From positions 736,001 through 800,000 of the forward strand of contig OY776215.1 in the NCBI GenBank assembly GCA_963675495.1: a DNA stretch of 64,000 bases, read 5' to 3'. The notes beneath the pieces are model-generated. The model was given only the letters and a program-made list of their open reading frames with translations, ran no database searches and was not told the DNA's origin. A program made the translations under genes and the position numbers. Positions within the stretch are counted from its first letter, which is position 1. Every line of letters begins with the position of its first letter. This stretch comes from an uncultured Methanolobus sp. (GTDB lineage Archaea > Halobacteriota > Methanosarcinia > Methanosarcinales > Methanosarcinaceae). Below are positions 49,972 to 54,527 of the stretch, in pieces.

Positions 49972-50433
49972 ATGAAAAAGCAAATGGTCATGTTGATGCT
50001 AGTGCTTACTGTGCTTCTACCGGTGGCCAGTGCAGACGTAGTCAGTGACATTAATCTCAAAGTCAATGAATACAATCAAAATGCAGACAAGGTACCGTTT
50101 TTTCTAAAAAGTCTTTTGGGCGATGAAGTTATCAAACTTGTAATAGTGACAAACGACGGTGAAGAGGTATACGTCAAAGCAGTCACTGAAGACGCATACA
50201 TCACCATCTTTGGAGAAATTGACAAGGACGAGGAAATTGGTGAAACGATAGTCGTAGGAACCAGCGAAGACACTGTCCAAAACATACTTAATTCAGATGA
50301 TCCACTTGGAACTTTCCTTGACGCAAAAGAAAATGATGAGATCGTAATTGAACCCATAGGCTTTGTGAACAATGTCACATTTGCCGTGGCAAATGTGCTA
50401 CTGAAATTGTCACAGGTTCTTGGATTGACATAA
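49972..50433 (+). CDS. Hypothetical exported protein
   Basis: Signal peptide ending ASA; GGAGG RBS. Confidence 0.75.
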   Translation: MKKQMVMLMLVLTVLLPVASADVVSDINLKVNEYNQNADKVPFFLKSLLGDEVIKLVIVTNDGEEVYVKAVTEDAYITIFGEIDKDEEIGETIVVGTSEDTVQNILNSDDPLGTFLDAKENDEIVIEPIGFVNNVTFAVANVLLKLSQVLGLT

Positions 50434-50486
50434 TGTCAAAATAACTAAAATATATATACAAATATATAGATATTCAGTAACTAAGG

Positions 50487-50714
50487 TCAGCGAATATCCA
50501 GTTCACTGGCCATTTCTTTATACGATCGACCTTTATCGGTCGTAATGAACATATTTCCTTTTTGTTCAATAAGCTGCTTTTCCGCCAATCTCGAAAGATA
50601 TTTGTTCGCAATCGTGGAATTCAAATTCGCACCATATACGATCTGTGTCTTTTTTGCTCCATCCATAGCTATTTTCAATATGGCTATTGTAATATCCAAC
50701 CGACTTCTTCTGAT
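50487..50714 (-). CDS. Small winged-helix protein (HTH_45-like), probable ATC start
   Basis: (M)RRSRLDI..AIL....GAKKTQIVYGANLN...YL..L...TTDKG. Confidence 0.8.
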   Translation of the reverse strand: MRRSRLDITIAILKIAMDGAKKTQIVYGANLNSTIANKYLSRLAEKQLIEQKGNMFITTDKGRSYKEMASELDIR

Positions 50715-50960
50715 AGTAATGCCCCCACATTCTATTCATATAGTACCACTAAAACCAGTGATACATCTGTAAATAATAATATACCATTAACCTGTTAATT
50801 ATATCATCAACCACATATTTAAATTAATCGATATGTAATAATACTACGTAAATATGTTACTAAATAAATAACTAGAAGTATGCCAATAGATAATTAGACC
50901 ATTTGCAACAGTTAGATTTATAATAAATACGGCACTAGATGTATCGTTAAGCTCTCAAAT

Positions 50961-51007
50961 GCGGGAGCAAATAAGCAGTCAACGATAGTAGACTCAAGAT
51001 ATCCCGC
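50961..51007 (+). pseudogene. Degenerate 5' half of a tRNA-Leu(CAA)
   Basis: 29/40 identity to the first 40 nt of tRNA 51040..51125, including GACTCAAGAT; begins GCGGGAG. Confidence 0.75.
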
Positions 51008-51039
51008 TAAAACTGAGCTAAACACACAAAATACACTGG

Positions 51040-51125
51040 GCGAGAGTAGCCAAGCGGTCAACGGCGATGGACTCAAGATCCATTTTCGCAGGAATTCGTG
51101 GGTTCGATTCCCCCCTCTCGCACCA
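51040..51125 (+). tRNA. tRNA-Leu(CAA), CCA encoded
   Basis: GCGAGAG/CTCTCGC acceptor, ATGGA-CTCAAGA-TCCAT anticodon arm, long variable arm; one T:C mismatch in the T-stem. Confidence 0.93.
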
Positions 51126-51134
51126 TATTTTTTT

Positions 51135-51163
51135 GGGATATAGTTAACAACAAAAAACCGAAC
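51135..51163 (+). repeat. Putative casposon left terminal inverted repeat (unpaired)
   Basis: GGGATATAGTTAACAACAAAAAACCGAAC, resembling Methanosarcina casposon TIRs as recalled. Confidence 0.6.
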
Positions 51164-51234
51164 TTTTACTAAAATTTATAAGTAGGGTTTTTTGAAGAGT
51201 AACTTATTTAGCACTTGTAAATATATTTAAGAAT

Positions 51235-51708
51235 ATGTCTTGGGAACTTACATGTGATATTTGTGGTGACAATTTTAATGGGCTTGATCCAAATTTGCAA
51301 GCATGTCGCTCTTGCCAACATATTCTAAACAAATATAAGAAAAATAAAAGATATGATTATGTATCTGTAAGATTTGCATTACAAGAAGCGTTTTCTCACA
51401 AAGACTCTGACAATGTATATTTTATGTGTCAATACACAGGAATTATTAGTACATTTGATAAACAAAATAGCGCAATAGGTCATTTTAATGACCCTTTTGT
51501 ACTAACATTAGATCATTTATATTCTAAACAAGATTCGGTAGTTGTCTGTTTAAACCTCGTTAATAAAATGAAAGGTGATATTCCACCATCAGAATTTAAG
51601 TACATTGTAATAGCTTTGGGAGAACTCTTCAAAAGCGAGGATAAAGCAATCGCTTCTAAAGAGCTTGAGGATAAATTGAAGATAATATGTGCCATTTCTC
51701 AAGAGTAA
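51235..51708 (+). CDS. HNH-like endonuclease with N-terminal Zn ribbon
   Basis: CDIC...CRSC; CQYTG...LTLDH...VVCLNLVNKMKGD. Confidence 0.65.
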   Translation: MSWELTCDICGDNFNGLDPNLQACRSCQHILNKYKKNKRYDYVSVRFALQEAFSHKDSDNVYFMCQYTGIISTFDKQNSAIGHFNDPFVLTLDHLYSKQDSVVVCLNLVNKMKGDIPPSEFKYIVIALGELFKSEDKAIASKELEDKLKIICAISQE

Positions 51709-51894
51709 CAACAAAAAAAGAAACTTCAACAAATAGTATATGAAGTGTTTTAATTCAAAAGAACAAAACTATTATTTTGTTCACTATATTTGTTCTTAAT
51801 AAATAATTTAAACTGATTAATTGAAGAAACATTAAATTGTAAAAAAGACGATAATCTGTAAAATAATATATAAAAGTTGAAACTATTTCTACTT

Positions 51895-53154
51895 ATGAGC
51901 GATTTTTCAGAATTCCTGCTGGATTATGGGGCACATGAAAAAGAAAATGTGGATAAATTTATTAAAAGACTAGATGAAGGGAAAGTTACACAAAATGAAA
52001 AATACCCTCCTAAAAATCGTTTCATTAAATTAAACGAACCAATTGCAGACCCATATGTAAATATTTGGAGTATGATTCCCTTTTACGGCTCAACATTAGT
52101 CAAATTAATGCCAAAGGACAATAGAAAATCTTTCGATGACAGTCATGAATGGTTGGGATTCAATTCTCGAAAAATTGACGAAATGATTGACTTTCAAAAA
52201 GATACTGGCAGAATACAATTTGTACTTACAGCACATCCTACTCTCTATGAAAACCTAGATTTCCTTGAACCTTTATTTACCGAAGTCAAACCTCCAGTTC
52301 TTCCATATGACACAGTGTCTATTGTTGGACAAGAATTGGATAAAAAGCATAAAATTGAGTTTGAAACATTAGCTGATTTCGGGTTTAATCAATTTGTAGA
52401 AGTTTCAACTAGACTTATGGGGAGTAGTAATCCAATATATATTTCTGCAAAATTAGATGATTACGCCAGTCGTTACAGTATCCTTAAAGCTAGTGGTTAT
52501 GAAGAATTAGCTGACGAAATAGGTACGTTAATGATTATTGACCCTGCAAAAGCACATATGTTTCTGATTTTGTTTGGTTTTTTGATAGCAAATCCTCAAA
52601 AATCGCTTCTAAAACCAATTTGCGCTTATGATAAAAGTTTCATTGATTCAGTTAATGATTATGGGAGCGAATACAATGTAATGGTCAATAATGAAGTGCC
52701 TTACGAAATTGGCAAATTCCTTTTGAACAAAATAGTACATTATCCTGAAACAATGGAAGGATGCAAGTCAATTATTCAGGAGTACGACGATCAGGAGCTA
52801 TACAAAATAATGGGTTCACTGAATGAAGGTGTAAAAAGAGAAGATATAGATAAAATCGAACAAAAAGAAAAAGACATATCTGATATTTTGGATAATGTTT
52901 GGAACGACGCTAATGTAATTAAAAAGAGGGCTGATGAAATTAAGTTTGGAATATCACTTAGTCTTGGCTTAATAGGTGGTGTTGCTGGCGGAATAGAAGG
53001 TTCAGGAATAATGTCATTTTTAGGTTATAATTTTTCAAATACAGTATGGGGGATGAAGGATGAGTCAATTTGCGAAAAAATGGCAAAATTTGCTACTCCA
53101 AACCACTTAGTATCAATATATGACTTTAAAAAGAAATATCCTTTAAATGATTGA
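51895..53154 (+). CDS. Hypothetical protein (AT-rich mobile-element cargo)
   Basis: Intact ORF of about 419 aa; Gly-rich hydrophobic segment near the C-terminus; no recognised motif. Confidence 0.75.
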   Translation: MSDFSEFLLDYGAHEKENVDKFIKRLDEGKVTQNEKYPPKNRFIKLNEPIADPYVNIWSMIPFYGSTLVKLMPKDNRKSFDDSHEWLGFNSRKIDEMIDFQKDTGRIQFVLTAHPTLYENLDFLEPLFTEVKPPVLPYDTVSIVGQELDKKHKIEFETLADFGFNQFVEVSTRLMGSSNPIYISAKLDDYASRYSILKASGYEELADEIGTLMIIDPAKAHMFLILFGFLIANPQKSLLKPICAYDKSFIDSVNDYGSEYNVMVNNEVPYEIGKFLLNKIVHYPETMEGCKSIIQEYDDQELYKIMGSLNEGVKREDIDKIEQKEKDISDILDNVWNDANVIKKRADEIKFGISLSLGLIGGVAGGIEGSGIMSFLGYNFSNTVWGMKDESICEKMAKFATPNHLVSIYDFKKKYPLND

Positions 53155-53162
53155 GCGTTCTT

Positions 53163-53516
53163 TCATTTTAAACTAGCAAATAATTTCTTCACCGCCGGAG
53201 TATTCAAATTGAGATTTCCGTTCCTAATCCTTTGTTTGATTCCCTGAAACCTGCTCCTTGAAACTCCAAGAGCTTCCGCTTCAGATTGTGACATGCTAAG
53301 GATATTATCCATAATCTCTTGTTTGTTGATAAACTCCTGAGTTTTCTTCACATCAATAGCCTGTTCATCAATGTTATTGGCTTCCTTGCCTATGTAAACA
53401 GCAGAATCAGCCAGAACATGCTTTCTTTCCAAGATTCCAATATCTCCATCAAACTTAGATTCAAGATGACTGGCATATTCAATTATTGTCCTGCTAAGTT
53501 GCTTAAAATAATTCAT
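53163..53516 (-). pseudogene. C-terminal fragment of casposon-type family B DNA polymerase
   Basis: H(L)ESKFDGDIGILERKH...YIGKEANN followed by an HTH-like tail, recognised from memory; no polymerase core upstream. Confidence 0.65.
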
Positions 53517-53632
53517 TCTTTCCTCACAAAATCCAAATGCTTATTTCCCCCAATCTCATTCATATTAACAACCGGAATAAAATAAATAATAAAAGAGTCT
53601 ATTATCGCGAAATTGTAGAATACTTTAATCAT

Positions 53633-53665
53633 ACTCATGCAGGAGTTAGAATCCCTTCTCCCGCA
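53633..53665 (+). pseudogene. Degenerate 3' half of a tRNA-Leu
   Basis: CTCATGCAGGAGTT-AGAATCCCTTCTCCCGCA: variable arm, partial T-arm and acceptor strand. Confidence 0.65.
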
Positions 53666-53687
53666 CACACATCAAAGGTGATCTTTT

Positions 53688-54527
53688 TTGTCAAATCCAA
53701 TAGAACGTGATACCGTTGTATCAGCCATTGTTGATATTTTAAGAGAGGCAGAGACCGTGCTGCCACAGGACGTTGTAGATTCGCTTCAGAAGGCTGCATC
53801 GGAAGAAACATCCCCTGTTGCAAAGGAGCAACTTGAAGCTATCCTTAAGAATATAGAGATAGCGAGAACCAGAGGAGTTCCCATGTGTCAGGACACAGGC
53901 ATACTCATCTTTTTTGTAGAACTTGGACGCAAAGCCTTGTTTGATTTCAGTCTGGAAGACGCCATACTCGAAGGTGCGAAGAAAGCAACCGAATCAATTC
54001 CACTGCGCCCGAATGCTGTAGACCCGATAACTCGTGGAAATAGCGGAGATAACAGCGGAATGGGTATCCCTGATATAAAATACGAACTGGTTGAAGGAGA
54101 CAGCATCAAAATCACTGTTGCCCCAAAGGGGGCAGGTTCTGAGAATATGAGTGCTATCAAAATGCTCAATCCAACTGAAAAGGACAGGATACGCAATTTT
54201 GTCCTTGAGACTGTGCTAAACGCAGGTGGCAAACCATGTCCCCCAATAATCGTTGGCGTAGGTATTGGCGGCTCCTTTGACAAATCTGCAAGGCTTGCAA
54301 AATCCGCCCTGCTTAGAAATGTTGACGACATGGATGAAGAAGAGCGAAGTTTGCTTGAGGACATCAACTCCCTTGGGATCGGACCCATGGGACTTGGTGG
54401 AAAGACAACAGCCCTCGCAGTACACATGAAAAAAGCTCATTGTCATACAGCATCCCTGCCTGTGGCTGTGAATATCCAATGCTGGGCCAATCGCCATGCT
54501 TCAGTCACCCTGGGCGGTGATGAGTAA
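53688..54527 (+). CDS. Fe-S hydro-lyase, fumarate hydratase alpha subunit
   Basis: PMCQDTG, LRPNAV, KGAGSEN, GKPCPP, CWANR. Confidence 0.93.

Follow-up and report, generated by a model that had tools for sequence, protein, structure and literature searches.

A casposon fossil with a single terminal repeat at the tRNA-Leu(CAA) gene of an uncultured Methanolobus

Casposons are transposons that copy themselves and have ties to the origin of CRISPR. Casposons of family 2 in Methanosarcina mazei, of which MetMaz1FA1A3-C2 is an example, insert at genes for tRNA-Leu (Krupovic et al. 2016, PMC4779613; Hickman et al. 2020, PMC6977970). [quoted passage not shown] Decayed forms have been described as well: M. 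mazei SarPi carries three solo terminal inverted repeats (TIRs) and no full-length casposon, and the inactive casposons of Methanococcoides burtonii have neither TIRs nor TSDs and keep fragmented core genes (Krupovic et al. 2016). Here, we describe a casposon fossil from an uncultured Methanolobus sp., located at positions 51135-53512 of a 64,000-nt window (the whole stretch of DNA that was analysed, taken from contig OY776215.1 of assembly GCA_963675495.1).

The fossil is real and well delimited, and belongs to a kind of remnant at tRNA-Leu that has already been described. It is an AT-rich insert of 2.4 kb directly 3′ of the tRNA-Leu(CAA) gene, with a GC content of 27-35% over about 51200-53600 vs 42-51% in the flanking genes, which encode the DNA polymerase II large subunit and fumarate hydratase (fumarase). 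Very probably, a casposon inserted at tRNA-Leu(CAA) and later lost its core through a deletion by microhomology, leaving an immobile left-end fossil. The window contains the following features (aa, amino acids; ORF, open reading frame; handles beginning with G denote genomes, G000 being the organism's own):

51040-51125, forward strand: tRNA-Leu(CAA), the integration target, called by ARAGORN; its last bases, CGCA(CCA), open the target motif.
51119-51134, forward strand: target-site copy CGCACCATATTTTTTT, the CGCA motif followed by AT-rich sequence, 16 nt; the right-hand copy is lost.
51135-51167, forward strand: left casposon TIR (GGGATATAGTTAACAACAAAAAACCGAACTTTT), aligned to the casposon ends of G003, G006, G021, G023, G018 and G051.
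51235-51708, forward strand: intact cargo gene for a 157-aa protein, a candidate His-Me/HNH-like nuclease from weak PHROG matches and motif conservation.
51895-53154, forward strand: intact cargo gene for a 419-aa protein (425 aa from an alternative start at 51877) of an uncharacterised family with 124 homologues.
53163-53513, reverse strand: what is left of the 3′ end of the casposon polB gene, roughly codons 774-888 of 888, from BLASTP and tblastn; readable as an ORF at 53163-53516.
53511-53516, no strand: deletion junction of polB codon 774 with host spacer; the join has 2-3 nt of microhomology, and the 117-aa ORF takes its ATG from the host side.
53517-53687, no strand: older host spacer, including an ancestral tRNA-Leu 3′ remnant (about 53645-53672), common to G001, G003, G020 and G024.

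With the family 2 casposons of M. mazei, this locus shares the target at the tRNA-Leu 3′ end, 5′-CGCA followed by AT-rich sequence, and its element end GGGATATA is the same as the one published, 5′-TATATCCC, a comparison that covers 8 nt. Intact relatives of the fossil likewise encode a casposase of ~400 aa, a PolB and a small HNH-like gene. Unlike the M. mazei elements, the window keeps the left 2.4 kb only, without casposase, right TIR or demonstrable TSD; the spacing of the target motif is 16 rather than 14 nt, and the host genus differs. Like the M. mazei solo-TIRs and remnants, it has a single TIR by a CGCA target in a genome with remnants only, yet it retains two intact cargo genes, a 111-codon polB tail and a junction that can be mapped to the base. 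The casposons of M. burtonii are comparable as decayed family-2 elements with fragmented core genes in a Methanosarcinaceae genome, although there the TIRs are gone, whereas the window keeps a TIR and has lost the core. Cas1, a full-length PolB and two TIRs with a TSD, the marks of a functional casposon, are all missing from the window element.

At the left boundary, the sequence reads ...CTCTCGCACCATATTTTTTT and then, from 51135, GGGATATAGTTAACAACAAAAAACCGAAC; split at the tRNA gene, the end ...CTCTCGCACCA is followed by TATTTTTTT and then by GGGATATAGTTAACAACAAAAAACCGAAC. The TIR, GGGATATAGTTAAC...AAAAAACCGAACT, is identical at 30 of 33 bases to the repeat of the intact casposon of G003, and 51135-51167 can be aligned, base for base, to six casposons of the genus at their left ends, all six being bounded by TIRs and TSDs (G003, G006, G021, G023, G018 and G051). 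Within the window, the 17-nt start of the repeat has a single exact occurrence, and the one other match, with three mismatches, is at chance level (expected 0.18; two or more matches in 2 of 100 shuffles). It is the base-for-base alignment with the casposon ends of relatives that lifts the motif beyond chance. In all six intact casposons the order is tRNA-Leu (TAA or TAG), CGCA with 10 further nt, and after these GGGATATAG(G/T)TAAC...AAAAAAC(C/G)GAACT; the far end has the inverted repeat followed by the same 14 nt, identical in five of the six (G003, G021, G023, G018 and G051) and matching at 12 of 14 positions in G006. The repeat can be written GGGATATAG..AAAAAACCGAAC. No inverted partner repeat was found in the window or nearby in the genome. 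An original prediction, made from the letters of the window, had proposed a casposon fossil with one terminal repeat here, which the comparison with the six elements and with the published M. mazei end bears out. A further inverted repeat of 18 nt (51151-51194, 83% complementary, 8-nt loop) extends from the inner TIR to just beyond it.

Comparison with the same locus in relatives (40 genomes searched with 50400-54100 of the window as query) tells occupied and unoccupied sites apart. In G004, G008, G009, G010, G016 and G023 (7 of 9 loci), a winged-helix gene, tRNA-Leu(CAA) and fumarase follow one another, and tRNA and fumarase are no more than 13-20 nt apart; in G003, G020, G006 and G001, 0.2-1.2 kb of other sequence lies between the two. 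A GGGATATAGGTAAC-like motif (at most two mismatches) is absent from 12 tRNA-Leu(CAA)/fumarase loci of 10 genomes. The sole exception among 11 relatives is G024, where a casposon-type repeat after the same tRNA is followed by a different, 4.9-kb remnant. 51135-53512 has thus been inserted, and the repeat does not belong to unoccupied sites. The casposon-free G020 has an identical tRNA at this locus (100% over 90 nt). In the closest relative, G001, a different insert of 1,060 bp without casposon repeat lies between the same tRNA and the fumarase-proximal spacer (L022 2727-3788) and includes an uncharacterised 157-aa ORF.

The other end of the insert is casposon polymerase. The 117-aa ORF (53163-53516, reverse strand), which contains HLESKFDGDIGILERKH...YIGKEAN and converges on the 419-aa ORF with a gap of 8 nt, is identical over its residues 2-112 to residues 774-884 of the 888-aa PolB of G003 at 98 of 111 positions (BLASTP). 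This PolB scores above the cut-off for PF00136 and adjoins a 404-aa Cas1. DNA like the ORF is multi-copy in the genus, about 4.5 kb from genes for ~400-aa Cas1 proteins, and in the loci of relatives that were compared the ORF matches the C-terminal ~111 residues of ORFs of 880-898 aa. Those of G006 and G003 exceed the Pfam cut-off for DNA_pol_B, and a second G006 copy also scores DNA_pol_B_2 (PF00136 or PF03175). Each such PolB adjoins genes for proteins of 113 aa, ~212 aa and ~300 aa as well as a Cas1 of 399-404 aa (PF01867, E 2e-70 and 3e-68). Since residues 1-402 of the G003 Cas1 match PDB entry 6opm_A (E 7.9e-196), a structure of the M. mazei casposase in complex with DNA (Hickman et al. 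2020), the elements of the genus are closely related to the family-2 casposons of M. mazei.

Homology to PolB runs out at 53512-53513; from 53511 onwards, the window and the fumarase-proximal spacer of G001 have 96% identity. In ORF direction, a three-way sequence comparison has the flank ending in ...TTTTGTGAGGAAAGAATGAAT, followed by polB codon 774 (TATTTTAAGCAA...), and an ATG at the junction position is also present in G001. Therefore, the two parts were joined with 2-3 nt of microhomology and the start codon of the ORF is host DNA. The original prediction was right about the PolB origin of the 117-aa fragment, namely of its last 111 codons, while the host-derived ATG makes the ORF a chimera. 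The window lacks the spacer found after the tRNA in G001, G003 and G020, so the deletion extended from within polB, over the right TIR and target copy, as far as host DNA. A contig from another sample of this organism covers 53212-53679 and spans the junction with 0 differences. The polB tail has 0 stops in 111 codons, and a GAGG lies 5-6 nt upstream of the flank-derived ATG. Compared with G003, the ratio of nonsynonymous to synonymous substitutions (dN/dS) is 0.07 at a dS of 0.76, so most of the divergence of the tail arose within a working polymerase.

Put together, a family-2-type casposon, a self-synthesising element with a Cas1-casposase and a PolB, very probably integrated at the 3′ end of tRNA-Leu(CAA) by the CGCA motif. 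A later illegitimate deletion, using 2-3 nt of microhomology, would then have joined polB codon 774 to the host spacer. Lost with it would be about 773 polB codons, the 113-aa HNH gene, two other core genes, cas1, any right cargo, the right TIR, the right target copy and some host spacer. Left behind and immobile (51135-53512) are one TIR, two intact genes of left-arm cargo and a polB tail of 111 codons, which the in-frame ATG of the flank turns into the 117-aa ORF. The homology of TIR and polB tail, the lack of the TIR at this locus in relatives, the missing cas1 and the junction are demonstrated here; the order of events is the presumed one.

The loss of the core extends to the genome as a whole. 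No match to Cas1 (PF01867) exceeded the threshold in the organism's own genome, in a search whose control matched 7 of 14 known genomes. PolB was sought by tblastn with casposon PolB, because a PF03175 profile search was uninformative, its control being without a match. With the casposon core proteins as queries, tblastn returned fragments only: C-terminal pieces of Cas1 at about 132.6, 317.4 and 1141.7 kb, and pieces of PolB at about 318.4-318.9, 402.8-405.1, 408.7-408.9 and 2647.1 kb. The predicted loss of cas1, most of polB (only residues ~774-888 remain) and the right end therefore stands.

Casposon fragments occur at at least seven other places in this genome, and scars were mapped on its contig C1 at about 132.6, 134.5, 158.9, 317.4-320.7, 402.0-408.9, 895.7, 1141.7-1143.3, 2023.9, 2340.0 and 2647.1 kb. 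The repeat-like sequences include two in inverted orientation at 402050 and 407172, whose duplication agrees at 12 of 14 positions; tRNA-Leu(TAG) is followed by two truncated repeat copies and tRNA-Leu(TAA) by a repeat of the right type, and another right-type repeat lies 166 nt from one tRNA-Leu(GAG). Four of the six tRNA-Leu genes are scarred. The surviving fragments are mostly 3′ tails of polB and cas1, transcribed outward from the centre of the element, a pattern which suggests that internal deletions removing the core may be the usual decay route of these elements.

Intact casposons are found in other members of the genus, where Cas1 (PF01867) was detected in 27 of 35 other genomes. Their layout is a TIR, variable cargo (+), PolB (-), the 113-aa gene (-), the ~212-aa gene (-), the ~300-aa gene (+), Cas1 (+), cargo and a second TIR, over 7.5-14.6 kb. 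No description of Methanolobus casposons was found in the literature, including passages of PMC10359463, in a search that had the 2014 casposon survey outside its range. Intact examples (L058 in G006, L059 in G003, L060 in G021, L061 in G009, L062 in G023 and L089 in G051) sit at tRNA-Leu(TAA/TAG) in tandem arrays with common target-site copies. Some carry defence-type cargo, namely a type I restriction-modification system (G003), HEPN_Apea (G021) and Imm26 (G023), and adjacent tandem elements hold a caspase-domain gene and a serpin.

Several observations weigh against the proposed history or soften it. CGCA and TIR are spaced by 16 nt here vs 14 nt in all intact relatives, for which two extra T in the T-run would be the simplest reading, the right copy being gone; for the same reason, with the right end lost, a TSD is not demonstrable. 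Further, the intact casposons of relatives that were examined sit at tRNA-Leu(TAA) or (TAG) and none at (CAA), where G024 has only another fossil. The undecayed polB tail fits a recent truncation without proving one. Finally, the tRNA itself has an unusual allele and lies between older stumps, so tRNA and fossil could have been brought in or reshuffled by recombination rather than placed by casposition in situ. Its acceptor stem, GCGAGAG/CTCTCGC, is unlike that of most relatives and is identical in G020, G001 and the compared part of the G024 tRNA.

The stumps belong to an older tRNA-Leu(CAA): a degenerate 5′ half at 50961-51007 (GCGGGAG...GACTCAAGAT, with 73% likeness to the live tRNA) adjoins the upstream flank without a break, and a 3′ end of ~27 nt (..GAATCCCTTCTCCCGCAC) at 53645-53672, also present in G003, G020, G001 and G024, is contiguous with fumarase. 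They look like the scar of an earlier integration or of a tRNA replacement, possibly by a tyrosine-integrase element. Could such an element, or a provirus, account for the whole insert, with the tRNA 3′ piece before fumarase (about 53645-53672) as its attachment site attR? The ancestral 3′ copy and the degenerate 5′ half (50961-51000) would suit this idea, as would the integrase elements of M. mazei tRNA-Leu, whose att site overlaps the casposon target (Krupovic et al. 2016). Yet G020 and G003, neither of which has casposon sequence there, share the scar together with the ~130 nt that precede it, so the scar is older and separate; 51135-53512 is wholly accounted for by casposon TIR, casposon-linked cargo and polB tail, and no integrase is present. 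We therefore consider this explanation highly improbable, and the tRNA 3′ piece is the older scar and not the right end of the casposon.

The idea of a mini-casposon, non-autonomous yet still movable in trans, has in its favour the similar blocks of TIR, cargo and polB tail in G002, G051, G001 and G022, yet a second TIR is absent from the window and its vicinity and the genome has no casposase, so that there is next to no chance of it. A mini-casposon of fixed structure was rejected: the truncation points of polB differ among the fossils (residues 680, 774, 778, ~801 and 841), and the blocks are therefore independent decays and not copies of a mobile mini-element. The remaining alternative concerns what has happened to the left arm since the casposon decayed, namely whether the cargo genes, and possibly also the chimeric 117-aa PolB C-terminal ORF, are kept by selection as a casposon-delivered accessory or defence island of the host. 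We regard this as unlikely, and the evidence on it comes largely from the cargo.

Measured against their homologues, the two cargo genes have their full length, in line with the prediction that they are intact. An AT-rich, TATA-like stretch precedes each of them, and they may still be expressed. The 157-aa protein has 9 database homologues, and 11 of the 200 further genomes of the order that were searched contain a match. All 10 sequences have an invariant zinc ribbon, CxxC...CxxC, followed by FxCxYTG...LTLDH...LN..NKxKGD, and D93-H94, N107 and N110, candidates for the catalytic His and downstream Asn residues of a beta-beta-alpha-metal core, are invariant among them. Weak matches to PHROGs point to an endonuclease (E 5.9e-4) and endonuclease VII (E 2.1e-3), while none of the 10 family members has a Pfam HNH match at E ≤ 1, a profile search of the PDB gave no relevant match, and the AlphaFold2 model is poor, with a predicted local distance difference test score (pLDDT) of 52.8. 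Taken together, its sequence makes the protein a weak candidate for a His-Me/HNH-like nuclease. Homologues directly inside a casposon TIR also occur in G022 and G176, i.e. at 3 of 10 loci examined.

This gene had been taken for the HNH gene of the casposon itself, an assignment that does not hold, as it is separate cargo with a weak likeness to HNH. Inspection by eye finds CCICG...ENHHV...CKNCH in the 113-aa core gene of relatives, whose G006 copy has sub-threshold HNH matches, and the core HNH gene is thus most likely to have been this one, which was deleted here.

The 419-aa protein has 124 homologues with full-length coverage, all named hypothetical; the source names of the closest ones point to Methanolobus as the probable host genus. 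Its AlphaFold2 model is confident (pLDDT 83.9, predicted template modelling score 0.80), with a glycine-rich, glycine-zipper-like C-terminal stretch near residues 356-389 that is of low confidence. No family was found for it in Pfam, PHROGs, NCBIfam or PADLOC; the best Foldseek hits of the model had E 0.16 (PDB) and 0.14 (BFVD), a wide VIA-align search reached at best Z 6.1 for a four-helix bundle only, and the bacterial clusters obtained from the ESM Atlas were all ‘hypothetical’, DUF6236 being present in 16% of the members of one of them. Among 62 homologues, C19orf12-like matches occur in only three and a Gly-zipper match in one.

Within the genus, the 419-aa gene adjoins casposon sequence in G002, G051, G001 and G012, and in G051 a casposon with TIRs at its ends and a perfect duplication of 14 nt surrounds the homologue. 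There (L089 11162-13487), a fossil consisting of TIR, 419-aa gene and a PolB tail of 47 residues is nested inside the right end of a casposon with intact PolB, intact Cas1 and the duplication CGCATCGCTTCTAA, so a fossil arm may have turned into cargo of a potentially mobile element. The fossils of G000 (52862-53516) and G001 (L021 14572-15247) share 91% identity over the C-terminal part of the 419-aa gene and only 61% over the adjacent polB tail, a contrast that hints at cargo exchange between casposon backbones. In metagenome run X5 (over 51133-53504), a 2.5-kb contig has a near-identical TIR and the polB tail separated by 1,479 other bases and continues past 53504; a related casposon with different left cargo therefore exists in the environment. 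Separate contigs of the same run carry the 157-aa gene at about 97-98% identity. Among the genomes searched, the 157-aa and 419-aa genes occur together only in G000.

For selection on such an island speak, besides the intact reading frames, the settings of the 419-aa homologues at nine loci from public collections (seven from other archaeal groups, two from closer kin at 65% and 52%), where the gene stands alone in island-like surroundings without casposon genes within 4 kb: phage-type integrases are present at 3 of the 9 loci, and AbiEii-like AAA_15/AAA_21, Mrr, or PIN with AAA_14/DUF4143 elsewhere. The defence-type cargo of intact casposons points the same way, as do the stop-free polB tail with its low dN/dS, the GAGG before the ATG and a helix-turn-helix-like SQSEAEALGVSRSRFQGIKQRI stretch in the 117-aa ORF. 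Against it, PADLOC matched none of the three proteins, the 419-aa protein is without known fold or family, and the HNH-like assignment of the 157-aa protein is weak. The polB tails of other fossils vary in length and one is frameshifted, as expected of random core deletions, and at a dS of 0.76 most divergence of the tail is older than the truncation.

Extending this idea to the genus, casposons might serve as shuttles that place accessory and defence genes at tRNA-Leu, with the costly core of Cas1 and PolB deleted time and again, so that fixed islands of cargo only are left; the 419-aa and 157-aa proteins would then be new domesticated single-gene modules, and the PolB C-terminal ORF may persist as a small DNA-binding protein. 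We put this forward tentatively, as a doubtful proposal. What the locus does offer, with the deletion history that is very probable, is a base-resolved example of the death of a casposon, whose core was removed via microhomology while the left arm and its cargo were retained. Knowledge of casposons as such is unchanged, and two uncharacterised cargo families are flagged. Together with the intact, tandem and cargo-rich casposons of its sisters, this scarred genome forms a natural series for following casposon turnover, the choice among tRNA-Leu isoacceptors and the exchange of cargo.

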